64,000 bases of DNA from contig JAJPJA010000159.1 in the NCBI GenBank assembly GCA_021324455.1, forward strand, positions 39,239 through 103,238, given 5' to 3'. Under the pieces are notes generated by a model that was given only the letters and a program-made list of their open reading frames with translations, was not told the origin of the DNA and did not search any database. Below, piece by piece: positions 1 through 52,297 of the stretch; position 1 is the first letter of the stretch; each line of letters opens with the position of its first letter. The DNA comes from Pseudomonadota bacterium (GTDB lineage: Bacteria > Desulfobacterota > Binatia > Binatales > Binataceae). A program made the position numbers and the translations under genes.

Positions 1-64
1 GTTCGGATCTGTCAGGGAGCAGTTTTGATGCCAACCCGGAACGGTTGGACCGATCGAAATCAAT

Positions 65-1411
65 TCAAACGCCGGCCAACGGCAGCCATACCGTGAACTC
101 GCAGCCGTCCGGCAGGTTGCGCACGGTGATCTCGCCCTTATGCAGCCGCACTATCTCCCTGCACAGGTTCAAACCCAGGCCGCTGCCGCCGGCCGCCGGC
201 GCCGCGCCGCGAAAGAAACGCTCGAAGATGTGGGGCAGGTCCGTTTGAGCAATGCCGGGTCCGGTGTCGCGCACGCGAAGCGTCGCATGCTGGTTGTCCT
301 GTTTCAGAGCCAACGCCACAATTCCGCCTTCGGGCGTGAATTTGATCGCGTTGTCGAGCAGATTGATGATCAGACGCTTGAGATGGTCGCGATTTCCGGC
401 CACCGTCAGGCCGCCCTCGCAGCTCGCCTTCAGGCTCAGATGTTTGGACTGAATCAGGGGCTCGATGGCATCGAGCACTTCGCGCGCCAGCTCGCCCAGA
501 TTGACCGCATCGCGCCGCACGTACGCCTCCTCGCTGAGCTGCGCCATGGTGAGCAATTCCTCCGCCGTCGCACACAGCGCGTTAACCTCGCGCAGGGCGG
601 ACTGGATCGCGCCGCGCAGTTCCTCCGGATCGCGCTCGCGATTGAGCGCTATTTCCAGCCCGGTGCGCAGGACCGTGAGCGGCGTGCGCAGTTCATGAGC
701 GGCGTCGGACACAAAGCGCCGCTCGACGATCGACGCGCTCTCCACCCGCTCCAGCAATGCGTTTATCGCGGCGCTCAGGCGGCCGATCTCGTCGCGCGAA
801 TTGGCAATGGCGATGCGCCGGCCGATTTCCCTGGCGTCCATACGGGCCAGTTCGGCGGCCAGCGCGGCGATCGGATCAAGCGAGCGTCCGGCCAGCCAAT
901 AGCCTCCCGCCACCGAGACCAGCAGGACGAGCGGAGTGCCCAGCAGCACAATCGCGCGCAGGCGCGCAATCGAATCGCGCACCGCGGTGGCGTCAACGCC
1001 GTCTTCCAGGACAGCGGGGCGGCCGCCGATCAGAAGCGGCATGACCGCGTACCTGAAAACGCCGTCGGCGCCCTCCACCACACCTTCGCGCGCGCCGCGC
1101 TCGGAGATCGCGGGCAAGCCCGCGCCGAGGTCGCCGGCGTCAGCCAGCACCCGGCCCGCCGCGATCAGGCGCACCCGTTTGCCGGGACCGAGATCGCGCT
1201 CGCGGCTGAGCCGCCGCACGATCGAAACCGCGCCGGAATCGTCGCTACGCGCGATCGCGCCGGCACTGGTGTCCGCCTCCTCGATCAATGCGGCGTCGAG
1301 CGCGGCCCATTGCTGGCGGCTGAAAATCGCGCACACCGCGCCCGCCGCCGCAATCACAATCGCGGCCAGTACCGCGGCCCAGTACAGGGTCAGCCTCTGC
1401 CTGATACTCAT
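65..1411 (-). CDS. two-component sensor histidine kinase (two N-terminal TM segments, HAMP, HisKA, HATPase_c)
   Basis: H-box ELRTPLTVL; N-box LLDNAIKFTPEGG; G1 DTGPGI; G2 GLGLNL; two hydrophobic N-terminal helices. Its start overlaps the stop of the downstream response regulator (ATGA at 1408-1411). Confidence 0.85.
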   Translation of the reverse strand: MSIRQRLTLYWAAVLAAIVIAAAGAVCAIFSRQQWAALDAALIEEADTSAGAIARSDDSGAVSIVRRLSRERDLGPGKRVRLIAAGRVLADAGDLGAGLPAISERGAREGVVEGADGVFRYAVMPLLIGGRPAVLEDGVDATAVRDSIARLRAIVLLGTPLVLLVSVAGGYWLAGRSLDPIAALAAELARMDAREIGRRIAIANSRDEIGRLSAAINALLERVESASIVERRFVSDAAHELRTPLTVLRTGLEIALNRERDPEELRGAIQSALREVNALCATAEELLTMAQLSEEAYVRRDAVNLGELAREVLDAIEPLIQSKHLSLKASCEGGLTVAGNRDHLKRLIINLLDNAIKFTPEGGIVALALKQDNQHATLRVRDTGPGIAQTDLPHIFERFFRGAAPAAGGSGLGLNLCREIVRLHKGEITVRNLPDGCEFTVWLPLAGV

Positions 1412-2091
1412 GCGGGGCGGCGCAGCGAGTAGCCGGCGCCGCGGACGGTTAGGATTAGGGATTCGCTCCCGGCATAGTCGATCTTCTGGCGCAGCCGGTT
1501 GACGAATACCTCGATCAGGTTGGTGAACCCGTTATAACCGGTGCCCCAGGCCACTTCGGCGATCATGTCGCGCGTCACCACTTCGCCCGCATGGCGCATC
1601 AGCAGCTCCAGCAGAATCATTTCCTTGGGCGACAGCGCCAGCTCACGCCGCGACCGCCAGGCCTTGCGCCGGATAGGGTCGAGTTCCAGGTCCGCAACTT
1701 TCAGCATCGCCGCTGGCGCCGCGCTGCGCCGCCGCGCCAGCGCTCTGACCCGCGCCAGCAGTTCAGCGAAGGCGAACGGCTTGACCAGATAGTCGTCCGC
1801 TCCCGAGTCGAGTCCCGTAACGCGTTCGCTCACCGAACCGCGCGCGGTCAGAATCAGCACCGGCGTGGTATTGCCCTGCTGGCGCAAATCGCGCAGAAAT
1901 TCCAGGCCGTCTTTGCCGGGCAGCCGCAGATCCAGCACGATCAGATCGCGGGCCCCGGCGCTCAGTTCGCGCTGCGCGGCCTCGGCGCTGGGCGCCCACG
2001 CCACCGCAAAGCCCTCCTCGGCAAGCCCGCGCCGCAGACTCTCCGCCAAACGGGCTTCGTCCTCAACCAGCAGCAGCGACAGCGGTTGCAT
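1408..2091 (-). CDS. OmpR-family DNA-binding response regulator
   Basis: Receiver motifs LLLVEDE, DLIVLDLRLPGKDGLEF and DYLVKPF; C-terminal winged-helix region ending LTVRGAGYSLR. Start taken at internal ATG (MQPLSLLLVEDE), because the ORF-track start at 2181 runs into the hairpin. Confidence 0.85.
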   Translation of the reverse strand: MQPLSLLLVEDEARLAESLRRGLAEEGFAVAWAPSAEAAQRELSAGARDLIVLDLRLPGKDGLEFLRDLRQQGNTTPVLILTARGSVSERVTGLDSGADDYLVKPFAFAELLARVRALARRRSAAPAAMLKVADLELDPIRRKAWRSRRELALSPKEMILLELLMRHAGEVVTRDMIAEVAWGTGYNGFTNLIEVFVNRLRQKIDYAGSESLILTVRGAGYSLRRPA

Positions 2092-2110
2092 GTCACGATA
2101 ATGCCACGGC

Positions 2111-2167
2111 AAGGGGTGGGGCTGAACCGGGGTCATCGGGATGACCCCCGGTTCAGCCCCACCCCTT
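2111..2167. terminator. long near-perfect palindromic hairpin (about 25-bp stem) between the cupin gene and the response-regulator gene
   Basis: ggggtggggctgaaccggggtcatc paired with gatgacccccggttcagccccacccc, read directly from the sequence. Probable intrinsic terminator for the cupin gene and/or attenuator of the two-component operon; no clean T-tract follows. Confidence 0.5.
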
Positions 2168-2202
2168 GCGTTATCCCGCAAAACAACAGCGCACGGAGGA
2201 GG

Positions 2203-2655
2203 TCAGCGCAGGGTGTGTTCGCCGCCGACTCCGCCCACGGCAATGGCGGCCATTTTAGTGGGGCGGCCGCTGCGGTTGTGCCATGCATGCATCCCGCCCA
2301 ATTGCACCACGCAGTCGCCCTGCTTCAGATGCGCCTCGGTGCGATCCTGAAAGATCAGATCGATTTCGCCTTCCAGTACGACGAGGTAATCGACGGTCGG
2401 CGTTTTATGCATCACGCCGGCGGAATCGGTCGGCGGAAATTCCACGATACGAAAGCGCGTCTCGCCCGGTTGCAGGTCCATCCGCATGCGATCGAAGCCG
2501 GGAGTGATATCCCGTTCGTTTTTCAGGTCGGGAACGGAGCCGCCGGTGGCCCAGATTTCGGTGACGGAAAAGCCGCCCTGCCCGAAGACTTTGGGCGCCG
2601 CTCCGTCGATCAGCGCGTGGGGTTGGGATTGTCCGCCGACCACTCTTCTGACCAT
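2203..2655 (-). CDS. cupin-domain protein
   Basis: Small beta-barrel protein with two His-containing cupin-like segments (HKTPTVDYLVVLEG ... GGMHAWHN). GGAGGG RBS 6 nt before the ATG at 2655. Confidence 0.6.
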   Translation of the reverse strand: MVRRVVGGQSQPHALIDGAAPKVFGQGGFSVTEIWATGGSVPDLKNERDITPGFDRMRMDLQPGETRFRIVEFPPTDSAGVMHKTPTVDYLVVLEGEIDLIFQDRTEAHLKQGDCVVQLGGMHAWHNRSGRPTKMAAIAVGGVGGEHTLR

Positions 2656-2672
2656 GATTCGCCCTCCGGCTG

Positions 2673-4081
2673 TTATTCGTCTTTCCAATCCAATTCGCGA
2701 ACATAGCGCGCGAACAGGTCGCCGCGTTCGATGTAGTCCCTGAACAGACCGAAGCTGGGCGAGGCCGGCGAATGCAGACAGATCCGGCCCGGCGGCGTGC
2801 TTCGGTATGCGATCGATACCGCCGTGCGCATATCGGATGCAACGAAGCGTCGAGGCAGTTTCCCGGCCGGGTATTCGCGCTCCATCGCCTGCCAGATGCG
2901 TTCTCCCGAGGGCGGGAACAGGATGACGGTTTCCACCGCGCTTTGCGCCAGCCGCCGCGCCAGCCCGGTCATGTCGAGCCCGCGATCGTATCCGCCCAGC
3001 AGCATCGTGGCGACGCCTTCTCCGAGCGCGTCCAAAGCGGCGATAGCCGCCTGGGGAATGGTCGCCAGCGGATCATTGTAGAAAGCAACGCCGCGGAAGC
3101 TCCCCACCTTTTCCAGCCGGTATGGCAGCGGCTTGAATGCGCGCACCGCCTGCGCGATTGCGTTGGGCGCAGCGCCGAGAACGCGCGCCGCGGTTACGGC
3201 CGCCAACACGTTGTGCAGGTTGAAACGCCCCGCCAGAGGAACCTGTTCAAGCGGCAGGATTGTCTCCGTCCGCCCGCTTTCATCGCGATAGAGCACGCGG
3301 TCCGCTTCCACCCAGCCGCCCGGACCCGGCACGCCGTCCAACCCGAATGCAAACCGCCGCGCCAGGGACGAAGCGGCAATCTCGCGCGGTATCGGATGCG
3401 TCGGGTTGTAGATCAGGAAGTCCCGCCTGGTCTGAAACCGCGTGATGTTTTGCTTGGCGCGCACGTAATTTTCGAATCCGCCGTGCAGGTCCAGATGCTC
3501 CGGCACGATGTCGAGCAGTACCGCGGCGTGCGGGCTCAGGCTGATACCGTCGAGCTGGTAGCTGGACAGCTCCAGAACCAGATAGCTGCCGCGGCCGGCG
3601 GTGCGCAAAAGGCTCAGCGGCGGCACGCCGATGTTGCCTGCCAGGTGCGAATCGAGACCGCCGGCTTTAAGTATCGCATGAATCAGCGACGCCGTAGTGC
3701 TCTTGCCCTTGGTGCCGGTGATGCCAACGGTTGTCCCCACGCAGTTGGCCAGGAAGATTTCGATATGCGAGGTGACCCGCGCGCCCGCTCCGATGGCCTG
3801 CCGGATCGCCGGCGTGATCAGGGGCACTCCGGGCGACCTGACGATCACTTCGTACTGCCGCAGACACTGCAGGTAATTCTCGCCAAGATGGGCGGCCAGA
3901 TTGCGGTCGTGCGCGATGGCGCCGCGCACTTCAGGCGCGAGCCGATCGGCCTCCAGACGATCGGCGACGCCGATCATGCGGTCAGGAAATTCGGCGCGCA
4001 GGAAACGATAGGTCTCCAGTCCCTCGCGCCCCATCCCCAAAATCACAATCCGGCTGCGCCCCAGAACATCGAGCTTCATCG
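2673..4081 (-). CDS. Mur ligase family protein, MurD-like (UDP-N-acetylmuramoyl-L-alanine--glutamate ligase paralog)
   Basis: N-terminal Rossmann region IVILGMGREG; P-loop GITGTKGKSTT; C-terminal FYNDPLATIPQAAIAAL resembling the MurD FINDSKATN motif. The ORF-track N-terminus is an Arg-rich overprint; the real start is the ATG at 4079, overlapping the upstream stop (ATGA). Confidence 0.8.
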
Positions 4082-5458
4082 GATGGAGAGCTGCCCTTTG
4101 AGCAGCGCCGCGTAGTGCGGCGGCAGGTAATGATTGTCGCTCCACGCGGATAGAATCGAATGCGAGAGCGCGTCGAGGTTGTCTTGCGCGATCATTTCGC
4201 GTTCGACGGCGGCCAGCACAGGCGTTAGCGGCTCGCCGCGCTCCCGCCGCCGCTTGACGCCCAGATGCAGCCCGGCCAGGGTCTCCTCCCGCGTGCCGAC
4301 GCATTCGAACGGTTTCGGTCCGCCGGTTCCCAGCAGCGCGCGTATCAGCGCGATCGCGTGGTCCTGATCGAACAGGTCGCGGCCGAAGATCGCGCGCATC
4401 GCATCCAGCGGCAGGAACGGCGACAGCGAGATGAATACTGACAGGCACTTGGGGCAGCTGCCGCACCATGCGCCTTGATTCTGCGCGCGATTGCAGCTGC
4501 GGAAGGCATGGAAATACTCGCCGCACCCGGCAAACAGCCGGCACACCTGGATTTCGAACAGCGGCCGGAGCAGGCTGAAATAGCCGATCCCCGGAGCCAG
4601 GTGCCTTTCGGCATAGGCGCGCATCGCGGTCTCGAACGCGAAGGTCTTGGAATACTGATGGTTGATCTCGGCGCCGAGGAATTCCACGTTGCCCTCATCC
4701 GCGCTGCGTTCATTGGAGACCACCACGCGGTCGTAGTCGAAAATCATCGCGCAGCTCAGGCCTAAAATCGCCAGCAGCGCCGAGAACGGCGTATGTCCAT
4801 TGAGATAGCCGCGGCCATTGAGCTCCAGCAGGGCCGGATCGAGGGTGCGCCGCACGATGATCGGCCGCGCGCAGCCGCCGATTGCCGCGACCTCAAGCGC
4901 CGCCGGCAGCGGGTTGAGCATCAGGCAGTCGAACTGCTCGCCCAATTCGCGCAGCTCGTGCAGCGTCAAGGCGGAGTCTTTGCCGCCGCTGACCATCACC
5001 AGGGTGCGGCGTGCGCGCCGTCCGGACGGCGGCGGAGCGGCGCGCCGGCGGGGGGTGGGCGCGGCAATATTCAGATAGCCGGCCGGCCTGAAATCTATCC
5101 GGTTGACGTAAAAAAATTCCCCCATCCCCCGCAGCCACACCTCCCGCCACCACTGGATTTGCCAATCATCCAAAGCACCCGCCTCGATCAGCACATCGCG
5201 CGGACAGGCGGCCTTCCAGTAGCTGAGCATCTCGACCATCCCGAGATGGAAGGCGAGGCGCTCGACGACCGCGGGATCGAGGTCGTCGATGCGCGATCGG
5301 TCGATCGACTCGATTACGATCCCGGGCGTGAAGATCAGGTCTGGCTCGAGCTCGAAGCAAAACGCGATCCTGAGGCGGTTGGCGGTCCGCTCCAGGGCAT
5401 AACTGCGGTAAATGAAGCGCGGATGCCTGCGCCGCAGTTCCTCGGCCGTGAACTTCAT
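4076..5458 (-). CDS. PP-loop (SGGxDS) ATP pyrophosphatase family protein with C-terminal Cys cluster (CxxC ... CGSCPKC)
   Basis: VMVSGGKDS PP-loop motif, as in TilS/QueC/MnmA-type adenylating enzymes, and a CGSCPKC zinc-ribbon-like motif. Translationally coupled to the MurD-like gene. Start ambiguous: ATG at 5458 or TTG at 5494. Confidence 0.7.
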   Translation of the reverse strand: MKFTAEELRRRHPRFIYRSYALERTANRLRIAFCFELEPDLIFTPGIVIESIDRSRIDDLDPAVVERLAFHLGMVEMLSYWKAACPRDVLIEAGALDDWQIQWWREVWLRGMGEFFYVNRIDFRPAGYLNIAAPTPRRRAAPPPSGRRARRTLVMVSGGKDSALTLHELRELGEQFDCLMLNPLPAALEVAAIGGCARPIIVRRTLDPALLELNGRGYLNGHTPFSALLAILGLSCAMIFDYDRVVVSNERSADEGNVEFLGAEINHQYSKTFAFETAMRAYAERHLAPGIGYFSLLRPLFEIQVCRLFAGCGEYFHAFRSCNRAQNQGAWCGSCPKCLSVFISLSPFLPLDAMRAIFGRDLFDQDHAIALIRALLGTGGPKPFECVGTREETLAGLHLGVKRRRERGEPLTPVLAAVEREMIAQDNLDALSHSILSAWSDNHYLPPHYAALLKGQLSIR

Positions 5459-5494
5459 GAATTTTCGACCCGCACCGGCGCGCTCGGCGGGCAA

Positions 5495-6715
5495 TCAGTT
5501 GCGCAGGATGACCGCGCTGCCCTGGTTCTCGAACGCCCACCCCAGGCAGGCTGCGATATGACCGTCCTTGACCTGGCGGCATCCTTTGGAGCGATCATAG
5601 GTGTGCTTGCCTTCGGCCCAGTTGGGACAGTAGTCGTCCGCGCGATGGCGGAGCTGGCGCACGTTTTCGATCACCATCGCGATGCCATGCGTGTAGCCCT
5701 CCGACAGATGCCCGCCGGAGAGGTTTGACGGCAGCCGCCCGTCAATCTTGAGCGCGCCATCCTTGACGAAATCCCCCGCCTCGCCGTAGCCGCAGAAACC
5801 ATACGCTTCGAGATTGATCAGGCTGGTGAAGGTGAAGGCGTCGTAGGCGGAGACAAAGTCAATGTCTTTCTGGCTGACCCCGGCCATCCCGAACAGCCGC
5901 TGGCGCCCGTAGTTGCCGGCGACGTAATGAATCACCGGGCGCGAATAGTTCCACATCGGATTGTCCGTGGTCATGCGCGCGATGCCGCCCATGATATAGA
6001 CCGGCGGCTGGCGCAGGTCGTACGCGCGTTCGCGCGAGGTGATGATGAGCGCGGCGGCGACGTCGGTTTCAAGACAGCAGTCGAGCAGGCGGAAGGGCTT
6101 GGAGACCCATCGCGAGCGATGATGATCCTCCTTCGTGATCGGCTTGCGCATGATCGCCTTGGGATTGAGCGTGGCGTGGTAGCGATGGGCCACGGCGACT
6201 TCGGCGAACGCATCCGTGGTGTTGCCGGTGTCATGCAGCCAGCGCATCGCCGACATGCCGAAGCGCTGCGCCGGCGTGGTCCATCCGACGGTCATGTTGA
6301 ACTGGCCGTCGCCGGCGGCGGGGGCCTGGCGCACGGGGCCGCCGGGGCTCTGCCCGCCCATCCGCCGGTTCGACCTTCCGTTCATGGAGCGGAACACCAC
6401 GATGGTGTGGCAGCATCCGGCTTCCAGCAACCCGATACATTTCATGATCAGGGCTTCGGTGCTGGAGCCGCCGCCCATGATATCGACCGAGTAGTTCAGC
6501 CGGATGCCGAGCGCGGTCGCGATATGGTTGGAGCTGGTGGAATCCATCGCCTGGTAACTGGTCATGCCGTCGATATCGCGCGGCTGCAGACCGGCGTCGG
6601 CCATCGCCTTGAGCACCGCCTCGCAGCCCATCGACAGCGTGGTCCGGTTGGACGGCCGCATGTGGGGCGTTTCTCCCACGCCCACGATGCAGTACTTGTC
6701 AGTCAGTGTTCCCAT
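5495..6715 (-). CDS. thiolase-like protein, SCP-x / nonspecific lipid-transfer-protein type
   Basis: Thiolase fold with N-terminal CIVGVGETP, catalytic-Cys region and C-terminal GGHLSEGYTHG. It resembles the SCP-x thiolase at 57140 more than a degradative thiolase. Confidence 0.7.
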   Translation of the reverse strand: MGTLTDKYCIVGVGETPHMRPSNRTTLSMGCEAVLKAMADAGLQPRDIDGMTSYQAMDSTSSNHIATALGIRLNYSVDIMGGGSSTEALIMKCIGLLEAGCCHTIVVFRSMNGRSNRRMGGQSPGGPVRQAPAAGDGQFNMTVGWTTPAQRFGMSAMRWLHDTGNTTDAFAEVAVAHRYHATLNPKAIMRKPITKEDHHRSRWVSKPFRLLDCCLETDVAAALIITSRERAYDLRQPPVYIMGGIARMTTDNPMWNYSRPVIHYVAGNYGRQRLFGMAGVSQKDIDFVSAYDAFTFTSLINLEAYGFCGYGEAGDFVKDGALKIDGRLPSNLSGGHLSEGYTHGIAMVIENVRQLRHRADDYCPNWAEGKHTYDRSKGCRQVKDGHIAACLGWAFENQGSAVILRN

Positions 6716-6898
6716 CGTTTCCTCCCGCTCCGGATGCCTTGCAATCGCTTCTGAAAACCGTTTATGCCACGATTTGCCGCGGCTTTCGGCGCAACGCCCG
6801 CAGCCGTCTTCGCGGACGGCGCCGCGATGTTCTGGTATAACCTCTTTTATGGGCGATTAGAAAGTACGGGACGCAAAAACTTCGCCGAGGAATCTGAA

Positions 6899-7255
6899 AT
6901 GGCGGACCTGCTCAGAGAGAAATGCGTAGCATGCCGGCGCGATTCGCCGCGCGTCACCGAGGCCGAAATGAAAGAGCTGGGCGCGGCGATTCCGAAATGG
7001 CAGGTAATCGAACGCGACGGAATCCCACGCCTGGAGCGGATTTTCACATTCCCCGATTTTGCCGGGGCGATCGCCTTCACCAACCGCGTGGCCGCGATCG
7101 CCGAAGAGGAGGGGCATCATCCGGCTCTGCTGACCGAATGGGGCCGGGTCGCGGTAACCTGGTGGACGCACAAGATCCGCGGCCTGCATCGCAACGACTT
7201 CATCATGGCGGCAAAGACCGATGCGATCGCGCGCCAGGCGGGGGTCGAGTCGTAA
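6899..7255 (+). CDS. phhB: pterin-4a-carbinolamine dehydratase (PCD/DCoH family)
   Basis: Signature E-E-G-H-H-P followed by conserved W and H ([24 protein letters not shown]). GAGGAA RBS 7 nt before the ATG at 6899; the longer ORF-track N-terminus is unlikely. Confidence 0.8.
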
Positions 7256-7332
7256 CCTTATTTCAGAAGGCGCGCACCCCGGCGTGCGTGCGGCCGCGCA
7301 CCGACAGGAGTTCCACGCTGCAGGAGACCGGA

Positions 7333-7409
7333 TGGTGGCGGCGGTAGGACTTGAACCTACGACTCCGCGGATATGAGCCGCGTGCTCTAACCAACTGAGC
7401 TACGCCGCC
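7333..7409 (-). tRNA. tRNA-Met (anticodon CAT; elongator-type acceptor stem, could also be tRNA-Ile2 if lysidinylated)
   Basis: The reverse complement folds as a 77-nt cloverleaf GGCGGCG-TAGCTCAGTTGGTTAGAGCA-CGCGG-CTCATAT-CCGCG-...-GGTTCAAGTCC-...-CGCCGCC-ACCA, with 1:72 G-C paired, so it is not an initiator. Confidence 0.85.
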
Positions 7410-7454
7410 ACTGGACAGGACAGATTAGCTGGGGGCCGCGGCGGACGAAAGGGG

Positions 7455-8165
7455 CTAGCGCAGCGCCTTGATTCGATGGCTGCTCACCTTTCTGCTGCCG
7501 CGATTGACCTGGTAGCATCGGCCTTCGGTAAATTCGACGCAGCTCAACTTGCCGCCGTAAACCAGACCCGTGTCGAGCCCGATCTTGTACGGCAGATCCA
7601 GCATCACATCGCGCATCGGGGTATGGCCGAAGATCACCGTATGGCCCAGGTCATGCGGATTGGCGATGAATTCCTGGCGAATCCACAGCATGTCTTCCGC
7701 CTCCTGGTCCTCCAGCGCGCGCAGCGGATGCACGCCGGCGTGGACGAACAGGTAGGGCGGCCGCAGGTAGCTGGTCTCCAGCTTCTGCAGGAAATCGACA
7801 TGGCCGTGCGGCAGTAGCGCCAGCGCCTGGTCGAGATTGGATTCGTCGATATCGTAGCTCGCCATGGTGGCGAAGCCGCCGTTGAACAGGAAGGATTCGC
7901 CATAATGCCCCGGCATCCCGAGGAACGACAGCATCATGTCCTCGTGGTTGCCCTTGAGGAACACGGTATTCGGGTTGTACTGCTTGAATTCAATCAGCAG
8001 GTCGATAACGTCGCGCGCCGACGGTCCGCGATCGACGTAATCGCCGACGAAGATCACGGTATCGCCCGGACCCGCCTCGATCGCGCGCAGCAAAGCATCG
8101 AGCTCCTGCGGGCATCCGTGGATATCGCCGATGGCGAAGACGCGATCTTCCCTTCTCCACGCCAT
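7455..8165 (-). CDS. metallophosphoesterase, PPP-family Ser/Thr phosphatase / ApaH-like
   Basis: GDIHGCPQEL, GDYVDRGPSARD, GNHEDMML and VIFGHTP metal-ligand motifs. Start at the internal ATG at 8165, 1 nt after the meaB stop. Confidence 0.8.
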   Translation of the reverse strand: MAWRREDRVFAIGDIHGCPQELDALLRAIEAGPGDTVIFVGDYVDRGPSARDVIDLLIEFKQYNPNTVFLKGNHEDMMLSFLGMPGHYGESFLFNGGFATMASYDIDESNLDQALALLPHGHVDFLQKLETSYLRPPYLFVHAGVHPLRALEDQEAEDMLWIRQEFIANPHDLGHTVIFGHTPMRDVMLDLPYKIGLDTGLVYGGKLSCVEFTEGRCYQVNRGSRKVSSHRIKALR

Positions 8166-12882: not shown

Positions 12883-15800
12883 ATGAGTTTCGTCCATCTT
12901 CACGTCCATACCCAATACAGTCTTTTGGACGGCGCGAACAAACTCGGTCCGCTGCTCGACCATGCCAGGGCCGCGGGGATGCCGGCGATGGCGATCACCG
13001 ACCATGGCAACATGTTCGGTGCGGTCGAATTCTACAAAAAAGCGGTGGAACGCGGGATCAAGCCGATCATCGGATGTGAAGCCTATCTCGCGCCGGGCAA
13101 GCGCACCGACCGCGGTTTCGCGGTCAAAGCCGATGACGTCGAAGGCGCCGGCAATTATCATCTGATCCTGCTGGTTCAGAATCAGACCGGATACCGCAAC
13201 CTGTGCCGTCTGCTCACCGCCGCCTATCGCGAAGGGCTCTATTACAAGCCGCGCATCGACAAGGAGATCTTGCAGGAAAACTCCGAGGGGCTGATCGTGC
13301 TGTCCGGATGCCTGTCGGGGGAGCTGGCGCGTGCGCTGCGCGCCGGACGCACCGACAAGGCGTATGAAGTGGCCCAGTCCTATGCCAGGATGTTCCCCGG
13401 CCGCTTCTACATCGAGCTGCAGGACAACAAGCTGCACGGCCCCTATAACGAGGCGCTGCGCGAGATTGCCCACAAGGTCGGCCTGCCGATGGTGGCCACC
13501 AATGACTGCCATTATCTGCATCGCGAGGACGCCCGCGCACACGAAGTCCTGCTCTGCATCCAGACCGGCAAGACCATGGCGGACGAGACCCGATGGCGGT
13601 TTGACACCGACGAACTTTACGTCAAGACACCCGCCGAGATGGAATCGGCTTTCGCCGACGATTTGTCGCCGGTACGCAATACGGTGGAAATCGCCAACCG
13701 CGTCGATTTTCAGTTCGACTTCGGCAAGTTCCATTTCCCGCGCTACGAGCTGTCGGCGGACGATCTCGGCCGCGCCCGCGCCGGCGGGGACGAGGAAGCG
13801 CAGCTGCAAAGCGTGCTGGAGCAGCGTACGCGCGAGGGACTGCAGCGGCGGCTGGACGAACTGCACGCGCGGCGCGGCGATTTCGACGAAACGCCCTATC
13901 ATGAGCGGCTCGATCGCGAACTGCCGGTTATCCGCGAGATGGGTTTTTCCGGCTACATGCTGATTGTCGCCGACTTCATCAATTACGCGCGCGGTCTCGG
14001 AATTCCGGTCGGACCGGGCCGCGGCTCGGTGGTCGGCAGTCTGGTCTCCTACGCCCTGCGCATCACCGAACTGGATCCGATCGAGCACAAGCTTCTGTTT
14101 GAGCGATGGCTCAATCCGGGGCGGCGTTCGATGCCCGATATCGACGTGGACTTCTGCTTTGAACGGCGCGACGAAGTGATCGACTACGTGCGGCGCAAGT
14201 ACGGCGAGGAGCGCGTCGCACAGATCATCACCTTCGGGACGATCAAGGGCAAGCAGGCCATTCGCGACGTCGGCCGCGTGCTGGGATTATCCTTCGGCGA
14301 GACCGACCGCATCTGCAAGCTCTACCCGGCGCCCAAGCAGGGCCGCGACTTCCCGCTGGAGGACGCGCTCAAGATGGAGCCGCGGCTGCGCGAGGAGCGG
14401 CAGAAATATCCCGAGCTGTTCGAATTCGCCTTCAAGCTCGAAGGTCTGCTGCGCCACGCCTCGCGCCATGCGGCAGGCGTGGTGATCGCCGACGGTCCGC
14501 TCGATGAGATGGTTCCGCTCTACGCCGATAAGGAACGCGCCGAGGGCGCCCCTGCCATCACCCAGTACTCGATGAAGTTCGTCGAGGATATCGGGTTGGT
14601 GAAGTTCGATTTTCTGGCGCTGAAAAACCTGACCCTGGTGGAGGATACGCTGGAATTGATCAAGGCGGGCGGCAAAACGCCTCCCGATCTGAACCGCTTG
14701 CCGCTGGATGACGCCGATTCCTACAAGCTGCTGGCGCGCGGCGATACCGTGGGCGTGTTCCAGGTGGAAGGTTCCGGGTTTCGCCGCTTCCTGACCGATC
14801 TCAAGCCGACCTGCTTCGATGACATCATCGCAGCCGGCTCGCTCTTCCGTCCCGGCCCGCTTGACGCGGTGGAAGACGGCAAGACGATGGTGCAGCATTA
14901 CGTCGATCGCAAGCACGGCCGAGAGCAGGTCAAGTATCCGCATCCGCTGCTTGAACCGGTGCTGCGCGACACCTACGGCGTGATCATCTACCAGGAGCAG
15001 GTGATGCGGGTGGCGCAGGCGCTTTCGGGATACACCCTGGAGCAAGCCGACATCCTGCGCGCCGCGATGGGCAAAAAGAACAAGGCGGTGATGGAGAAGG
15101 AGCGCGAGCGCTTCATCCAGGGCGCGGTCAACAACGGCATCGACCACGATACCGCGCACAGCATCTTCGAGCAGATCGAAACCTTCGCGTCATACGGATT
15201 CAATCGCAGCCACGCCGCCGCCTACGCGCTGACAACGTACATCACCGCCTATCTCAAGGCGCATTACCCCTGCGAGTTCATGGCCGCGCTCACCTCGCTG
15301 GACATGGACGACGTCGACAAGACCTACAAGAATATCGCGGCGCTGCGCGAGATGGGAATCAGGCTGCTGCCGCCCGACGTCAATGAAAGCCGGGTCAAGT
15401 TCGCGGTCGTGGCCGACGCAATCCGCTTCGGAATGGGTGCCATACGCGGGGTCGGCGCGAAGACGGCCGAGGCGATTATCGCGGCGCGCGAGCAAGGCGG
15501 GCGCTTCACCAGCCTGACCGACCTGTGCATGCGCGCCGACCCGCAGCAGATCAACCGCAAGGTGCTCGAAGCTTTGGTCAAGTGCGGCGCGTTCGATTCA
15601 ACCGGCGTCAGCCGGGCCGAAGCGATGGCGCAAATCGAGGACGGGCTCAAGCTGCTGGCGCGGCGCGCCGACCCCTCCGCGGCCAATCAGATGGGATTGT
15701 TCGGCGCGATGGCGCCGGCGATTCGCACCGCGCCGCGCGCTCCCGCCGCGCCGTGGGACTTGAAGGAACTGCTGCGCGCGGAAAAAGAAGCCCTCGGCTT

Positions 15801-16416
15801 TTACGTCACCGCCCATCCGCTCGACAAGTACACCGACAGGATCGGACCTCTGACCGGCGGCGTCACCACCGCCGATCTCGCTTCGGCGCCCGACGGCAGT
15901 TCAGTCGTGCTGGTCGGCGTGGTGCAGGCGGTGAAGCTCAAGAACAACAAGGCGGGCAGGCGCTACGCCACTTTCACGCTGGAAGATCTTAACGGAGCGG
16001 TTGAAGTAATCGCGTGGCCGGAGACCTATCAGCGGGTGGAGCCGGTCATTAACAGCGACGAGCCGGTGGTGGCGCGCGGCAAACTGGATATCGACGAGGA
16101 ACGCGCGCAAATCCTGCTCGACGAGCTCAAACCGCTCAGCGTGGTGATGGTGGACAGCGTGCGCGAAGTCCATATCCGGGCGCCAAAGACGCGTCTGGAC
16201 GATGAATCATTGCGGCAACTGAAAGCGCTGTTCGGCCGCTATGGCGGCGGATGCCCCATCTACCTGCACCTGGAGCTTGACGCCGCGCGCGAGGCGATCT
16301 TCCTGCTCGGCAACGATTTTCGCGTCGCACCCACCGAGGGATTCGTGGGCGAGGTGGAGCAGATGCTGGCGCCGGGCGCGGTCGAGTTGAGGGCGCAACA
16401 GGGGGCCGCGATCTGA
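12883..16416 (+). CDS. dnaE: DNA polymerase III alpha subunit
   Basis: 1177 aa. PHP domain HLHVHTQYSLLDG; polymerase core; OB fold near the C-terminus. Confidence 0.95.
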   Translation: MSFVHLHVHTQYSLLDGANKLGPLLDHARAAGMPAMAITDHGNMFGAVEFYKKAVERGIKPIIGCEAYLAPGKRTDRGFAVKADDVEGAGNYHLILLVQNQTGYRNLCRLLTAAYREGLYYKPRIDKEILQENSEGLIVLSGCLSGELARALRAGRTDKAYEVAQSYARMFPGRFYIELQDNKLHGPYNEALREIAHKVGLPMVATNDCHYLHREDARAHEVLLCIQTGKTMADETRWRFDTDELYVKTPAEMESAFADDLSPVRNTVEIANRVDFQFDFGKFHFPRYELSADDLGRARAGGDEEAQLQSVLEQRTREGLQRRLDELHARRGDFDETPYHERLDRELPVIREMGFSGYMLIVADFINYARGLGIPVGPGRGSVVGSLVSYALRITELDPIEHKLLFERWLNPGRRSMPDIDVDFCFERRDEVIDYVRRKYGEERVAQIITFGTIKGKQAIRDVGRVLGLSFGETDRICKLYPAPKQGRDFPLEDALKMEPRLREERQKYPELFEFAFKLEGLLRHASRHAAGVVIADGPLDEMVPLYADKERAEGAPAITQYSMKFVEDIGLVKFDFLALKNLTLVEDTLELIKAGGKTPPDLNRLPLDDADSYKLLARGDTVGVFQVEGSGFRRFLTDLKPTCFDDIIAAGSLFRPGPLDAVEDGKTMVQHYVDRKHGREQVKYPHPLLEPVLRDTYGVIIYQEQVMRVAQALSGYTLEQADILRAAMGKKNKAVMEKERERFIQGAVNNGIDHDTAHSIFEQIETFASYGFNRSHAAAYALTTYITAYLKAHYPCEFMAALTSLDMDDVDKTYKNIAALREMGIRLLPPDVNESRVKFAVVADAIRFGMGAIRGVGAKTAEAIIAAREQGGRFTSLTDLCMRADPQQINRKVLEALVKCGAFDSTGVSRAEAMAQIEDGLKLLARRADPSAANQMGLFGAMAPAIRTAPRAPAAPWDLKELLRAEKEALGFYVTAHPLDKYTDRIGPLTGGVTTADLASAPDGSSVVLVGVVQAVKLKNNKAGRRYATFTLEDLNGAVEVIAWPETYQRVEPVINSDEPVVARGKLDIDEERAQILLDELKPLSVVMVDSVREVHIRAPKTRLDDESLRQLKALFGRYGGGCPIYLHLELDAAREAIFLLGNDFRVAPTEGFVGEVEQMLAPGAVELRAQQGAAI

Positions 16417-20749: not shown

Positions 20750-20945
20750 AGCCAGCCCTCGAGTCCGCGGACCGCGGCCAGATCGCAGGTCCGCACCGAA
20801 ATTGGAATCAAGCCAAACAGAGCAGGAATTTCATCCATTTGCGAGACGTTTGCAGCGGCTCCGCGCGGCGGCCGCAAGCTGGACACCGCGCATATTCTTG
20901 CGGTTAACACGGCCTCTGTGGGACCTTTCCCTCGGAGGAAAACTT

Positions 20946-21893
20946 ATGAGCGATCATCCACTGCGCTTCGGCATCCAGACTCCGCAGCAGCAGGCGCAAT
21001 GGAGCGACCTGCGCGGCTTGTGGCAGAAGGCGGACCGATGGGGTTACGACTCGCTGTGGGTCTTCGATCATTTCTATCCGATCATGGGCGCCGACCCCGC
21101 CGGGCCGTGCCTGGAGGGATGGACCGTGCTGAGCGCGCTGAGCCAGCAGACCAGCCGCGCCCGAATCGGCGCACTGGTCAACGGCAACACTTACCGCAAC
21201 CCATGCATCACGGCGAAGATGGCGGCGACCCTGGACCATCTGAGCGGCGGGCGTTTCGTGCTTGGGATCGGCGCCGGATGGTACGAGTTGGAGCACAACA
21301 GCTTCGGCGTCGAGTTCAAAACCGTACCATGGCGGCTGCGCGCGCTGGACGAAGCCTGTCAGATCGTCAAAGGCATGTTCACGCAGGATAAGTTCACGCT
21401 GCACGGCAAGCATTACCAGGTCACCGACGCGGTATGCAGTCCCAAACCGCTCCAGCAGCCGCATCCGCCGCTGATGGTGGCGGGAACCGGCGAAAAAGTT
21501 TTGCTAAGGATCGTCGCCAAATACGCCAACCTGTGGAACTCGGGCGGCAGCGCCGAGCGGATCGGACATCTGATCGCGGTGCTCAAGCGCCATTGCGACG
21601 CGATCGGCCGCGACGCCGATGAAATCGAAAAGACCCTGATCACGTCGCTGTGCTATCGCGCCGGCCCGGACCGGGAGAAGCAGGTGACGGCGCGCGCCGC
21701 CGCGATGAGCCGCGGTACTGCGCAGGAAGCGCGCCGGAATATGGTGATCGGCGGCGCCGACGAATGCCTGGAGACCATCGAGCGCTATCGCAAGGCCGGA
21801 GTTACTCATTTCATCTTCTCGATGACACCGCCGTACATGGAAGACGAAATCCAGGGCTTTGCCGAAGACATATTCCCCGGGGTGCGCGGTTAG
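20946..21893 (+). CDS. LLM-class (luciferase-like) flavin-dependent oxidoreductase
   Basis: TIM-barrel LLM signature (DSLWVFDHF ... GRFVLGIGAGW). GGAGGA RBS before the ATG at 20946. Confidence 0.85.
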   Translation: MSDHPLRFGIQTPQQQAQWSDLRGLWQKADRWGYDSLWVFDHFYPIMGADPAGPCLEGWTVLSALSQQTSRARIGALVNGNTYRNPCITAKMAATLDHLSGGRFVLGIGAGWYELEHNSFGVEFKTVPWRLRALDEACQIVKGMFTQDKFTLHGKHYQVTDAVCSPKPLQQPHPPLMVAGTGEKVLLRIVAKYANLWNSGGSAERIGHLIAVLKRHCDAIGRDADEIEKTLITSLCYRAGPDREKQVTARAAAMSRGTAQEARRNMVIGGADECLETIERYRKAGVTHFIFSMTPPYMEDEIQGFAEDIFPGVRG

Positions 21894-22029
21894 CGGTGTA
21901 CCGCGTGTGTGAATTCGGGCCGCGGCGGCAATTCAACCTGTTGGCGCCGCAGCAAATATGCGGTACGACTAGAACAGCGGCGGCGGGACGTTCCTATCGC
22001 CCGCACGACAGATCGCAGAGAAGAGCAAG

Positions 22030-22566
22030 ATGGCACAGGGAACCAAGCTAGCTACTTTCGGAGCCGGATGCTTCTGGCATGTCGAGGCGGCATTCGCCGC
22101 GTTGGACGGCGTGGTCTCAACACAGGTCGGCTATATGGGCGGGACCGTGCCCAACCCCAGCTATGAGATGGTTTGCACCGATGGCACCGGCCACGCCGAG
22201 GTGGTTCAAGTCGAATACGACCCCGGCGTGATTTCGTACGAGCAGTTGCTTGAGCTTTACTGGGACCTGCACGACCCGACTTCCCTTAACCGGCAGGGAC
22301 CGGATATCGGCTCGCAGTACCGGTCGGTGATTTTCTTCCATGATGCGCAACAGGAAGGTGCGGCGCGGGCCGCGGTTCGCGCGCTGCAGGAAGCGGGGCG
22401 CTACGATCGTCCGATCGTAACCGAGATCGTGCCGGCGGCGGAGTTCTATCGCGCCGAGGAATATCATCAGCAGTACTTCGCGCGGCATTTCGGCCTGTCC
22501 CCGCAGCAGGCGGCGTTGGCCTGTGCCGTCGGCACCCCGGCGATGCGCCACGTCAAGAAGCCATAA
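22030..22566 (+). CDS. msrA: peptide-methionine (S)-S-oxide reductase
   Basis: Active-site GCFWHVEA and conserved C-terminal region. Confidence 0.9.
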
Positions 22567-22694
22567 TCTTTGGTTGCGTCCCTCCGGCCTGGGATTGCTC
22601 GCCCGCGGACTGAACGACGAAAGTGGAGAGCCTGCCGCGGAACCGGAAACTCGTTGCCGGGAGGGACGCCGCGCCATCATCGAAACGGGATAAA

Positions 22695-22733
22695 CAAAGA
22701 CGGCCGGAGAGGGGTGCTCCGGCCGTCTCTTTG
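22695..22733. terminator. bidirectional hairpin terminator between convergent msrA and thiolase genes
   Basis: aaagacggccggag-aggggtg-ctccggccgtctcttt. Confidence 0.55.
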
Positions 22734-22750
22734 CCGCGCTTTACAGCCGG

Positions 22751-23995
22751 TTACATCCGCTCCAGGATGGTGGCTATCCCCATGCCGCCGCCGATACACA
22801 TCGTTACCAGCGCGGTGGTCTTGTCGCGGCGCTCCAGTTCGTCGAGCACCGTGCCGACCAGCATCGCACCGGTGGCGCCCAGCGGATGCCCCAGCGCGAT
22901 CGCGCCGCCATTGACGTTGACCTTGTCGCGCGGGATACCGATGTCCTTCATCACCTTCAGCGGAATCGCCGCGAAGGCTTCGTTGATTTCCCACAGGTCG
23001 ATATCATTGGCCGTCATCTTCGCCTTCTGCAGCGCGCGCTTGCTGGCGGGCACCGGCGCCGTCAGCATGATGATCGGCTCGTCTCCGTAGGTCGCGGTCT
23101 GCAGGATGCGTGCGCGCGGCTTGAGCCCGTGGGCCTTGGCGTAATCCGGCGACGCCAACAGCACCACGCCGGCTCCATCCACGATGCCGCTGGAGTTGCC
23201 CGGAGTATGGACGTGGTTGATCACTTCGGCCTGCGCGTAGCGGGTCTTGGCCTTCTGGTCGAAGGTGAGCGGGCCGTCCTTCATGCGATAGCCGCCGCCG
23301 TTGGGATGGGTTCCGGCAAATGAGGGTTCCAGCTTGGCCAGCCCTTCCATGGTGGTGTTGGCGCGCGGATGCTCGTCGTGATCGAGCACCACCTTGCCCT
23401 CGCCGTTTTTGACCGGAATCAGGCTCTTTTTGAAGTAGCCTTTCTCCATCGCGTTCTTGCACATCATCTGCGACTCGTAGGCGAAGCGGTCGCAGTCCTC
23501 GCGCGAGAAGCCTTCCAGGGTGGCGATCAGATCGGCGGACACCCCCTGCGGGACCAGCGGATGGAGTTCGCGCAGATGGCGGTTGTGGCCGTCCAGACCG
23601 GAGCCGTCGGCACCCATCGGAACCCGCGACATGCTTTCCACACCGCCGCCGACCACCAAATCCTGCTGGCCCGCCATTACCCCCATCGCGGCGAAGTTGA
23701 CCGCCTGAAGGCCCGAGCCGCAGAAACGGTTGAGCGACACGCCCGTGGCCTCGTTGGGCCATCCCGCGGCCAGCACCGCCATCCGTGCGATACATCCGCC
23801 CTGCTCGCCGACTTCGCTGACGGTGCCGACGACCACGTCCTCGACGTCGCGTTTCTCGATCCCGTGGCGGTCGACCAGGGCGTTGAGCGCCTGGGCGAAC
23901 AGTTCCTGCGGATGAATCCCGGACAGCGCTCCGGAATCCTTTTTGCCGCGGCCCCGCGGCGTTCTGACGCAATCGATAATCCAGGCTTCGCTCAT
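22751..23995 (-). CDS. acetyl-CoA C-acyltransferase / 3-ketoacyl-CoA thiolase
   Basis: Thiolase signatures [11 protein letters not shown] (Cys nucleophile region), [14 protein letters not shown] and CIGGGMG. Confidence 0.9.
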
Positions 23996-24133
23996 GATTA
24001 AGAAATCTCCCTTAAATTTGGTTCGCTAATTCCAAGTGCCGGCCTTAAAGCTGCGCGCCGCATGCTGCGGGCGGCGCTTTGACCCATCATTCAGCGCATC
24101 GTGCCGTTGTGTCAAACCTGACGAAGGCCGCGT

Positions 24134-25222
24134 TCAGCCCAACTGCGGCATCACCGCCGCCCGCGTCACCTCGCGCCGCTCGCTTTTGTCCAGCGCCTCG
24201 GCCGCCCGCGACAGCGGAAATCTGGCGTCGCACAACTCGCCATAGGGATAGCGGTCGATGTGCAGGCTCAGGAAGTCGAGCGCCTTCTTGAGATAATGCG
24301 GCGGATAGCCGGTCATCGCGATCACCTGGATCGACTTCATGGTCAACGTCGAGGGCGGAAACTCAATCGTCAGGCTGCGCGAGATGTTGCCCAACTCCAG
24401 CACCAGGCCGCCCGCGCGCACCATCGCGAGCGCCTCGCTGAACGCCTGCGGGACACCCGCGACTTCCAGCACCGCGTCGGGTCCGGGGCCGCCGGTGAGT
24501 TCGCGGACGCGGGCGGTGCGGGCGCGCGCGTCGGGATATTGGCGGATGTCGATAATTTCATCGGCGCCGAAGCGGCGCGCGTGATTCAGCCGCCCATCGA
24601 CGCCGTCGATCGCTATAACATACGCGCCGCGGGCCCTGGCGATCGCAATCGCATGCAGCCCCAGTCCGCCGGCGCCCTGCACTACCAGCGAGTCGCCATA
24701 ACCGATACGTCCGCGATCCAGCGCCCAGAACACCTGCGACATCGCGCAGTTGGCCGAAGCGGCCACCTCGTCGGGCACATTGTCGGGAACGCGGTAGAAG
24801 ATCTGTTCGGGGCGGATGAAGTAATGGGTCGAGAAGCCGGCGGTGAAATGCGGCGGATGGTCGGGATGCGGATTGCCGGGCAGCGGATTCAGACAGGCGG
24901 CATGATTTCCCGACACACAGTTCCTGCATCGGTAGCACACCCGGAAGTACACCGGCGCGATGCGGTCGCCGGGTTTGATCGGCGCGCCGGCGCAATCCCT
25001 GCTGACCCCGCCGCCCAAAGCCGCCACGCGTCCGGCCAGCTCATGCCCCGGCATCATGCCGCGTCCGGCCATGAATTCGCCCTTCCAGACGTGCAGCTCC
25101 GAACCGCAGACGTTGCTCTGGGTCACCTCCAGCAGCGTCCAGCCGGGCTGCACCTGGGAAACTTCGTATTCGTGGAATTCCAGCGTATGCGCCGCCGGCA
25201 TGAACGCGATTTTGCCTTTCAT
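24134..25222 (-). CDS. zinc-dependent alcohol dehydrogenase (MDR superfamily)
   Basis: Catalytic-Zn motif CGSELH, structural-Zn Cys cluster (CYRCRNCVSGNHAAC) and GxGxxG nucleotide fold (VVQGAGGLG). Confidence 0.85.
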   Translation of the reverse strand: MKGKIAFMPAAHTLEFHEYEVSQVQPGWTLLEVTQSNVCGSELHVWKGEFMAGRGMMPGHELAGRVAALGGGVSRDCAGAPIKPGDRIAPVYFRVCYRCRNCVSGNHAACLNPLPGNPHPDHPPHFTAGFSTHYFIRPEQIFYRVPDNVPDEVAASANCAMSQVFWALDRGRIGYGDSLVVQGAGGLGLHAIAIARARGAYVIAIDGVDGRLNHARRFGADEIIDIRQYPDARARTARVRELTGGPGPDAVLEVAGVPQAFSEALAMVRAGGLVLELGNISRSLTIEFPPSTLTMKSIQVIAMTGYPPHYLKKALDFLSLHIDRYPYGELCDARFPLSRAAEALDKSERREVTRAAVMPQLG

Positions 25223-25259
25223 CTGATGCTCCCAATCAATTGAGCGCGGGTTTGAATCA

Positions 25260-26276: not shown

Positions 26277-26437
26277 CGGCGGCCTCCGGAGTGCGGATAT
26301 ACGATAACGGACGTTCAGCTTCAAGCCGGCTTCCGTGCGCTGAAAACAAAGCCTGAAAGGGAAAAAATATGAGCAACCAGGAAAACTTTGTTGAACATAA
26401 AGCTACTTTTTGCTACAAACGGGGCCGGAGGACAAAA

Positions 26438-26824
26438 ATGGTGCGTTCAGGCAAAAAGACCGCGATATTTACTCTGGCTGGAATGGTTGCCCTGTGGGTG
26501 GCGGGCACCGCGTGGGCGGACGGTTCAAGCCTCAAGGGCGACGATCCGGTGCTCTGCTGTCAGGACGCCTCGCTGCGTCCCACAACGACCCCCGTGGCCG
26601 GCGGCGGATCCGGTATTTTCATCTTCAAGGGCTGCCAGGCAATTGACGCCGGCCCCACCGCCTTCAACCGCTGCGACGGGCTGGTGATCAACTGTGCCGA
26701 GACCCCCGCGGCGTGCGTGCCGGACCCCAAACTCGGGGGCAAAGATTGCATCTGCGGCGTCAACCTGAATCTCGACGTCCTGCTCAACCTGACCCCGCTG
26801 GCCGGTTCCACCCCGACACATTAA
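26438..26824 (+). CDS. small secreted cysteine-rich hypothetical protein (8 Cys)
   Basis: Signal peptide MVRSGKKTAIFTLAGMVALWVAGTAWA, then 8 Cys in about 100 residues. GGAGGA RBS 7 nt before the ATG at 26438. No homology I can recognise. Confidence 0.55.
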   Translation: MVRSGKKTAIFTLAGMVALWVAGTAWADGSSLKGDDPVLCCQDASLRPTTTPVAGGGSGIFIFKGCQAIDAGPTAFNRCDGLVINCAETPAACVPDPKLGGKDCICGVNLNLDVLLNLTPLAGSTPTH

Positions 26825-26976
26825 GCCGCTTTGCCCCGGCAGGCCGCCGCAATGGCCCGGCCTGCCGGCCCAATCCCGCAACCGATCGCCGACGCCGGTT
26901 GACATCCGCCGCGGGGAACAGACAGATGTAAGCCGAAGACGGGAGACGGTCCCGTATTCGACTGGAGGCATCGCAC

Positions 26977-49604: not shown

Positions 49605-49804
49605 GATGACCTCCCGCGGCGCCGGCGCCCGCACTTTTGCCAAGCCCAGATGACTGAATTTACACCGATCGACCGGCCGTAGTGCAAACCTTCGCGAACC
49701 GTCCCGCGAGCGCTGGTATTGTCGCGGCATTTTTGACAAACAGGGAAGAGCACCTTGCAGCGGGCGCATGCCCGTTGCTCGCTGATTCGCCGAAAGACCA
49801 GATC

Positions 49805-52279: not shown

Positions 52280-52297
52280 GCCAGCCAGGGAGGCATC

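Follow-up and report, generated by a model that had tools for sequence, protein, structure and literature searches.

What is a MurD-like ligase doing outside the division and cell-wall (dcw) gene cluster, with its start codon lying over the stop codon of a gene that encodes a PP-loop protein? The question is raised by two adjacent genes in a 64-kb stretch of DNA (the window, meaning here the whole stretch that was analyzed) from an uncultured member of the Binataceae. The answer proposed here is that the two genes very probably constitute a MurD2/MurL bypass, a route that would place D-glutamate in the stem peptide of peptidoglycan. The evidence comes from homology, from specificity residues in the ligase, from fold, from conserved linkage of the two genes, and from gene fusions. 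The pathway itself is, of course, known. It is new in the Binatota, an uncultured phylum that lies outside the published host range.

The MurD2 (XOO_1320) and MurL (XOO_1319) system of Xanthomonas oryzae is said to have been described by Feng et al. in 2017. It differs from the combination of MurI with canonical MurD in the point at which glutamate is inverted. MurI needs no cofactor and acts on free glutamate, which it racemizes reversibly. With MurD2 and MurL, inversion follows ligation, occurs on the nucleotide-peptide, costs one extra ATP, and runs in a single direction. According to reviews from the Dairi group, X. oryzae is without murI, and XOO_1319 turns the ligation product into its D-Glu form in a one-way reaction that converts one ATP to AMP; complementation of a D-Glu auxotroph requires both genes (PMC8788868, PMC5808125). 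The two reactions, the conversion of ATP to AMP, and the unidirectionality have been shown in X. oryzae, Micromonospora, and Salinispora (PMC8788868, PMC5808125). The same reviews propose that MurL adenylates the alpha-carboxylate of Glu, state that no conserved domains of a known kind are present in MurL, and confine the pathway to some gamma- and alphaproteobacterial genera and rare actinobacterial ones (PMC8788868, PMC5808125). For the ligase, residues D182/K348/A414/L416 of Escherichia coli MurD correspond to E197/R358/P433/F435 of X. oryzae MurD2; an E197D/R358K double mutant of MurD2 switches to D-Glu, while the replacement K319T lets E. coli MurD accept L-Glu (PMC8788868).

Gene features in the window were read from a listing of open reading frames (ORFs) and by direct translation, and everything reported below for the pair lies on the minus strand. 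The murL homolog occupies positions 4076-5458, running from an ATG at 5458 to a TGA at 4076, and encodes 460 amino acids. The murD2 homolog, which encodes a predicted UDP-MurNAc-L-Ala--L-glutamate ligase of 468 amino acids, occupies 2673-4079, from an ATG at 4079 to a stop at 2673. The two share an ATGA at 4076-4079, in which the murD2 ATG (4079-4077) lies over the murL TGA (4078-4076), as read directly from the sequence. This is the overlap that the initial annotation of the locus had described, and it suggests that translation of murL and murD2 is coupled. No Shine-Dalgarno-like sequence was found at normal spacing upstream of the murD2 ATG, and a scan of positions 1-7600 for promoters and terminators gave nothing exceeding the expectation from shuffled sequence.

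The ends of the two genes needed some attention. The initial annotation was right about the ligase gene but ended it at 4081, where the ATG is in fact at 4079; a mechanically called ORF at 2673-4544 is an upstream-extended form of the same reading frame. That annotation had also extended the pair to 5494. An in-frame TTG does exist there, 12 codons upstream of the murL ATG and directly after the stop codon of a thiolase-like gene. The 460-residue form starting from the ATG at 5458 is nevertheless favored, because it is present verbatim in a public protein collection and because homologs align with it from residue 1. Both genes can be taken as real features that did not arise by chance, given the length of their ORFs and the strength of their family matches.

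The upstream protein is identified by a single family. Its sole NCBIfam match is NF041275 (MurL_Xanthomonadales; UDP-N-acetyl-alpha-D-muramoyl-L-alanyl-L-glutamate epimerase), with an E value of 3e-78 and an alignment that runs end to end, from residues 13-453 of the protein against positions 10-443 of the 447 in the model. It is 35% identical over its full length to the RefSeq-annotated MurL of Xanthomonas sacchari. The local copy of Pfam, which was without a MurL model, returned no domain, and PADLOC returned no match. In a large protein database, all close homologs carry precomputed PF26298 and PF26299, and a few of them carry the name MurL from JGI or NCBI. The closest named homologs of both MurL and the ligase are from Binataceae, at 69-74% identity.

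Translation confirmed what had been said of this partner: a protein within the predicted 460-470 residues, bearing both a PP-loop SGGKDS and a cysteine ribbon. The PP-loop (residues 157-162, positions 4973-4990) is the motif by which AMP-forming ATP pyrophosphatases bind the alpha- and beta-phosphates of ATP. The ribbon, C322-X9-C332-X2-C335-X2-C338 (CNRAQNQGAWCGSCPKC, positions 4445-4495), is probably a structural zinc site. A third motif, KPFECVG (residues 382-388, positions 4295-4315), lies in the C-terminal helical domain. Across 80 members of the family, G158, G159, and D161 of the PP-loop, all four cysteines of the ribbon, and P383 and C386 of KPFECVG are each conserved at 97% or more. 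The conservation of P383 and C386 spans phyla and extends to X. sacchari and Pseudonocardia, and C386 is a candidate catalytic residue.

The full set of residues that are invariant family-wide comprises GG.D, NGHTP, E250 and S252 (in SNE.S), H267, Q268, and K271 (in NHQYSK), SCN, WC..C.KC, and P383 and C386 (in KPFECVG). When aligned with the protein from the window, X. sacchari MurL also has GGKDS, GH.P, NHQ.SK, SCN, WC..C.KC, and KPFECVG. The two share SNE.SA as well, together with most of the family; a Pseudonocardia homolog has ANERSA at this place. Stand-alone MurL-like genes are found on three Pseudonocardia plasmids, where they have a GGGRDS PP-loop and keep all of the Cys motifs. On pPaSha1 of Pseudonocardia alni (L003 4764-6164), the plasmid whose flanks were inspected, the nearest 5 kb contain no Mur ligase, and the neighbors are WD40 and ParA-like genes. 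These plasmid genes may be paralogs that act on another substrate.

The initial annotation had left in doubt whether MurL is a PP-loop protein at all. It is: the family, also in Xanthomonas, conserves [S/G]GGKDS, and the predicted fold is QueC-like. An AlphaFold2 model of MurL, built with 35 homologs as input, has a mean pLDDT of 92.2 and a pTM of 0.91. When this model was compared by Foldseek with the PDB, the top matches were the QueC structures 3bl5 and 2pg3, with a probability of 1.0 and TM-scores, normalized to QueC, of 0.72 and 0.64. Next came QatC and Cap9, which are QueC-like, and then TtuA, ThiI, and argininosuccinate synthetase; no MurL-like structure was among the matches in the copy of the PDB that was searched. 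Sequence alignments point in the same direction. The MurL PP-loop aligns with that of TtuA in phmmer and, as a weak match, with that of E. coli QueC in hhalign; the four cysteines parallel C188-X8-C197-X2-C200-X2-C203 of E. coli QueC and are separated from the PP-loop by a comparable stretch.

Thus, MurL is modeled as having three parts: an N-terminal domain of ~135 residues, a core of ~200 residues in which a QueC-like PP-loop domain bears the Cys4 ribbon, and a helical domain of ~115 residues at the C terminus. The central domain shares with QueC its fold, an N-terminal SGGxDS loop, and the C-X8/9-C-X2-C-X2-C ribbon. It differs from QueC in that MurL has the additional N-terminal and C-terminal domains, and the identity between the two is only ~15%. 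The predicted substrate and outcome also differ, being a nucleotide-muropeptide and an epimerization in MurL, where QueC delivers a nitrile. QueC adenylates a carboxylate, as MurL has been proposed to do with the alpha-carboxylate of Glu, and a core of this type fits the published chemistry in which ATP is converted to AMP.

The downstream protein is a Mur ligase by its Pfam domains (MurD-like_N, Mur_ligase_M, and Mur_ligase_C), and the P-loop and NDPLAT motifs that had been attributed to it were confirmed by translation. To place its residues, the ligase was aligned with X. sacchari MurD2 and with E. coli MurD (b0088), using for the latter the numbering of the crystal structures, in which Met1 is removed. 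The catalytic set is intact. The Mur ligase P-loop GTKGKST (residues 122-128, positions 3696-3716) carries K126, the counterpart of K115 in E. coli MurD, and N149/E170/H195/K209/T340/S442 correspond to N138/E157/H183/K198/T321/S415.

The residues that distinguish the two glutamate specificities tell a different story. Glu194 (positions 3498-3500) aligns with E197 of MurD2 and D182 of E. coli MurD, and by alignment would be a determinant of specificity for L-Glu. Leu338 (positions 3066-3068), in the NDPLAT motif, stands at the position of K319 in E. coli MurD. Arg366 (positions 2982-2984) corresponds to R358 of MurD2 and K348 of E. coli MurD, while Pro441-Ser442-Phe443 (positions 2751-2759) corresponds to P433/F435 of MurD2 and A414-S415-L416 of E. 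coli MurD. Thus, all three of the residues typical of the D-Glu enzyme, D182, K319, and K348, are replaced in the ligase from the window. In HMMER alignments, the canonical MurDs of solved structures 3lk7 and 8dp2 carry Lys where the ligase has Leu338, and Thr or Asp where it has Glu194.

Compared with canonical MurD (E. coli b0088; PDB 1e0d, 2jff, 3lk7), then, the ligase shares the three-domain architecture, the P-loop, the position of the carbamoylated Lys, His195, and a chemistry of the UDP-MurNAc-L-Ala type. It differs from the E. coli enzyme by D182E, K319L, K348R, and the change of A414 and L416 to Pro and Phe. Further, E. coli MurD has Thr16 where MurL-linked ligases have an invariant Glu in an N-terminal GxGxEG, and the ligase gene in the window lies outside a dcw cluster and is coupled to murL.

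Most of these residues recur in other ligases that are linked to a MurL. In a scan of species-representative genomes with two conserved MurL peptides, confirmed relatives came from at least 595 species genomes, and the best 80 loci were analyzed. A MurD-like gene lies directly downstream of murL, on the same strand, in 69 of the 80. Residues were then counted over 70 MurL-linked ligases, with those of the window and of X. sacchari included. Position 366 is Arg in every one of the 70, and position 194 is Glu in 65. Lys is never found at position 338, where 67 have Leu or Ile; at position 443, Phe or Tyr is likewise seen in 67, and position 441 is variable.

The best 80 loci come from the Binatia, Acidobacteriota/Terriglobia, Rokubacteria, Methylomirabilia, Chloroflexia, Omnitrophota, Bdellovibrionota, a cyanobacterium, many Patescibacteria, Bacteroidales, and Clostridia, although the taxon labels of metagenome-assembled genomes were used as deposited, and these are at times unreliable. 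In ~26 loci from Patescibacteria (the candidate phyla radiation, CPR), the order of genes is mraY-murL-murD2-ftsW-murG (for example, L018 7402-12700 and L057 3806-15990). Here, the pair stands where the dcw cluster would have its canonical murD.

HMMER, run exhaustively against 1.84 billion representatives at 50% identity, found 2,640 clusters of the MurL family, of which 1,202 have E values of 1e-30 or less. Among the best 150 representatives, 28 are 740-1062 residues long (P0259, P0267, P0254, P0299, and P0330 are among the long representatives). A Pfam scan of ten long representatives found that all ten are fusions. In nine, MurL is joined to a Mur ligase, which comes first in some and second in others, and one such ligase has a MurC-type N-terminal domain (P0299); the tenth is a fusion of MurB with MurL (P0330). 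Fusions of this kind, and the placement within dcw clusters, link the MurL family to the cytoplasmic synthesis of UDP-MurNAc-peptides. Clustering of the flanking ORFs in 82 loci found no third conserved partner; only the dcw genes in Patescibacteria recur.

The comparison with MurL, and with MurD2 versus MurD, that the initial annotation had suggested was run on X. sacchari, and it returned a MurL at 35% identity and a ligase with the MurD2 residues. In X. sacchari, where the loci were found by tblastn of plasmid records, a 508-kb replicon carries a RefSeq murL followed by a murD, with an overlap of 20 nucleotides, and this pair too lies outside any dcw cluster, its ligase being named murD by RefSeq. 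The locus in the window is like that of X. oryzae in having the same two genes, with murL upstream and the ends overlapping; in a ligase with the same Glu, Arg, Pro, and Phe and no Lys at the K319 position; and in a MurL of the same length with the same invariant motifs. It differs from Xanthomonas in its flanking genes, in an identity of only ~35%, and in having the canonical SGGKDS as its PP-loop where Xanthomonas has GGGKDS. Its host, of course, belongs to a phylum absent from the published distribution. The proposal in the initial annotation of a MurD2/MurL-like alternative route to D-Glu is therefore upheld by a full-length match to MurL only, by the specificity residues of MurD2, and by a gene order that is the one found in X. 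sacchari and in 69 of the 80 related loci. The different possibility raised beside it, a novel ligase-plus-adenylation system, is not needed given the MurL match, the specificity residues, and the linkage.

Several observations, however, weigh against assigning the pair to this pathway. The MurL protein scores 263 bits against NF041275, far under the curated equivalog cut-off of 700. The ligase passes TIGR01087, the model for canonical murD, at 308 bits against a cut-off of 212. It shares 34% of its residues with X. sacchari MurD2 and 32% with E. coli MurD, and a hidden Markov model built from 66 MurL-linked ligases gives X. sacchari MurD2 284 bits and E. coli MurD 251 bits. Even Arg at position 366 is found also in canonical streptococcal MurD. 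With respect to MurL, the cut-off is tuned to Xanthomonadales; a score below it therefore excludes an equivalog of the Xanthomonadales type, but not membership in the family. With respect to the ligase, similarity over the whole sequence was dropped as an argument for MurD2, since the model of MurL-linked ligases barely separates X. sacchari MurD2 from E. coli MurD. Because overall similarity does not discriminate, the assignment as MurD2 rests on the signature residues and on the linkage to MurL.

Other explanations were considered. One is that an ordinary D-Glu-adding MurD happens to lie beside an unrelated PP-loop enzyme, either of a tRNA or queuosine type or of a defense type resembling QatC or Cap9. 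The TIGR01087 match is what this explanation would expect, and the nearest solved PP-loop folds are indeed QueC, QatC, Cap9, and TtuA. Nevertheless, it is scarcely credible. The whole protein matches MurL only, adjacency is kept across phyla and the genes are often fused, and D182, K319, and K348 are all replaced in the ligase. No Pfam domain for tRNA binding, or of any other kind, was found in the PP-loop protein, which is what the initial annotation had asked about in raising a tRNA enzyme; the defense-system reading was rejected for want of a PADLOC match.

A second kind of explanation accepts the adenylation but not the epimerization. It is common for PP-loop enzymes, QueC, NAD synthetase, and asparagine synthetase among them, to hand the adenylate on to ammonia. 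A MurL-like enzyme might then adenylate the Glu alpha-carboxylate for some other outcome, for example amidation to isoglutamine, and the ~35% identity to the characterized lineage, with a score under the equivalog cut-off, would allow for such a divergence. This, too, is very improbable, if less so than chance adjacency. No glutaminase or other ammonia donor is conserved beside the pair in the 82 loci, all of the motifs invariant across the family are common to Xanthomonas MurL, and the linked ligase has the residues for L-Glu, which make sense only if an epimerase follows. Somewhat more serious, yet still unlikely, is the possibility that the two proteins are a genuine MurD2 and MurL but serve as an accessory, with canonical MurD and MurI encoded elsewhere and the operon acting as a conditional back-up, perhaps under an adjacent two-component system. 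The pair does lie outside any dcw cluster, beside a histidine kinase and a response regulator on the same strand. But the published organisms have the pathway in place of MurI, the ~26 patescibacterial loci have the pair between mraY and ftsW, where murD would stand, and the MurD2 of X. sacchari is likewise outside dcw.

What the window itself can say about MurI is, of course, limited. A tblastn search of its 64 kb, made with 13 dcw proteins as well as E. coli MurI, matched only this ligase, which bears out the initial statement that it lies away from a dcw cluster, and Pfam scans of ORFs up to ~56 kb of the window found no racemase and no class IV aminotransferase. The window is, however, 64 kb of a multi-megabase genome, and the absence of murI from it says little about that genome. 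Nor would it matter if the ligase were the only murD of its host, which the initial annotation had mistakenly set as a point against MurD2: the L-Glu ligase of X. sacchari lies outside dcw and is itself named murD, so that being the only murD is no argument against MurD2. The MurD2/MurL pair may be the sole route to D-Glu in this host.

If the pair is a MurD2/MurL bypass, its operation can be outlined from the conserved residues and the modeled fold. MurD2 (2673-4079), acting as a Mur ligase, would attach L-glutamate first. MurL would then bind ATP at the PP-loop (S157-GGKDS) of its QueC-like domain, which the Cys4 ribbon, probably holding Zn, would stabilize. By adenylating the terminal L-Glu at its alpha-carboxylate and releasing pyrophosphate, the enzyme would acidify the alpha-proton. 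Candidates for removing this proton and returning it on the opposite face include conserved residues of MurL such as H222, H267, K271, and C386, and an oxazolone or a thioester may be an intermediate. The cost in ATP, together with adenylation of the L-epimer alone, would render the reaction one-way. The ATGA overlap, in turn, would couple the translation of the two enzymes.

The pair has close neighbors on the minus strand, as the initial annotation had correctly noted. A Cupin_2 gene (2203-2655; E 1.4e-6, just above the Pfam threshold) lies 17 nucleotides downstream of it, and a thiolase-like gene (5495-6715) lies 36 nucleotides upstream. The latter matches NF005892, an SCP-x “lipid-transfer protein” model, with an E value of 3e-99 and 332.6 bits, which is below the curated cut-off of 469; it also has Pfam Thiolase_C_1. 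Beyond it, on the same strand, come a response regulator of the OmpR type and a histidine kinase with HAMP. Among the 82 loci clustered, only those of the two closest genomes (L004 and L005) have the cupin and thiolase-like genes next to the pair. Because they are conserved only in these closest relatives, they are not part of the system, and were rejected as components of the pathway in favor of being lineage-specific neighbors. In the collinear region of the closest genome, the thiolase-like protein is 96% identical to its counterpart (L004 6674-7891), while MurL, MurD2, and the cupin are 73, 65, and 79% identical, respectively. In X. sacchari, a 150-residue hypothetical protein of the same size as the cupin overlaps the start of murL (L002 4351-4803); tblastn gave no match between this protein and the cupin, and its gene is on the other side of the pair.

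Around the pair lie housekeeping genes of a chromosomal kind, namely ispE, tRNA-Gln, prs, L25, and dnaE (12883-16416); Rfam found two tRNAs only over the window. The DnaE protein has 89% identity to its best named match, and all of its named matches belong to “Candidatus Binataceae” or “Candidatus Binatus.” Short-chain dehydrogenases (SDRs) are numerous, as are luciferase-like monooxygenases and CoA-transferases. In 20802-27984 and 49682-53521 there are three luciferase-like monooxygenases, several SDRs and thiolases, and family III CoA-transferases, one of them double-domain (865 residues) and one single. By their sequences, these regions appear to hold a dense repertoire for oxidation of a lipid or alkane type. 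Peptidase_S74 domains are intramolecular chaperones of the endosialidase or phage tail-spike type; one such domain is found at residues 507-560 of a 637-residue ORF on the plus strand (45575-47488), among ordinary metabolic genes.

The findings bear on annotation as well as on biology. For this locus, they re-annotate one “hypothetical protein,” as MurL, and one ligase from a group that NCBI-sourced records name D-glutamate ligase. The D-glutamate name is given to the closest homologs of the ligase in NCBI-sourced records, and to the X. sacchari ligase in RefSeq (L002 6136-7572); JGI sometimes has L-glutamate ligase instead. P0124, P0127, and P0165 are among the homologs concerned. The D-glutamate name is probably a systematic misannotation, which arises because TIGR01087 also captures MurD2. 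The results thus bear on how MurL-linked ligases are named in general.

For MurL itself, the literature that was searched, with subscription-only papers outside its scope, yielded nothing on the pathway other than the Dairi-group reviews, and did not yield a link to PP-loop proteins or QueC, so wide a distribution, a pair embedded in a dcw cluster, or fusions. There, MurL is described as having no known domains, and the PP-loop/QueC class is therefore not linked to epimerization. The Pfam entries PF26298 and PF26299, or the subscription literature, may already cover the fold, the distribution, and the fusions. However this may be, a QueC-like core offers a structural rationale for the conversion of ATP to AMP, as well as a short list of residues to mutate.

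Last, at least 595 species genomes and ~2,600 clusters at 50% identity represent a distribution far wider than the reviews state. We lean, if only slightly, toward a more general view, in which MurD2/MurL would be the standard route to stem-peptide D-Glu in the Binatota, many Acidobacteriota, the Rokubacteria/Methylomirabilia, and much of the Patescibacteria, and would serve also in some Bacteroidales and Clostridia, with MurL a carboxylate adenylase of the QueC type having a PP-loop and a Zn ribbon. MurD2/MurL has been proposed as a target for narrow-spectrum antibiotics. If the pathway is indeed the standard route in whole lineages, then the premise that it is a narrow-spectrum target would need to be revised.

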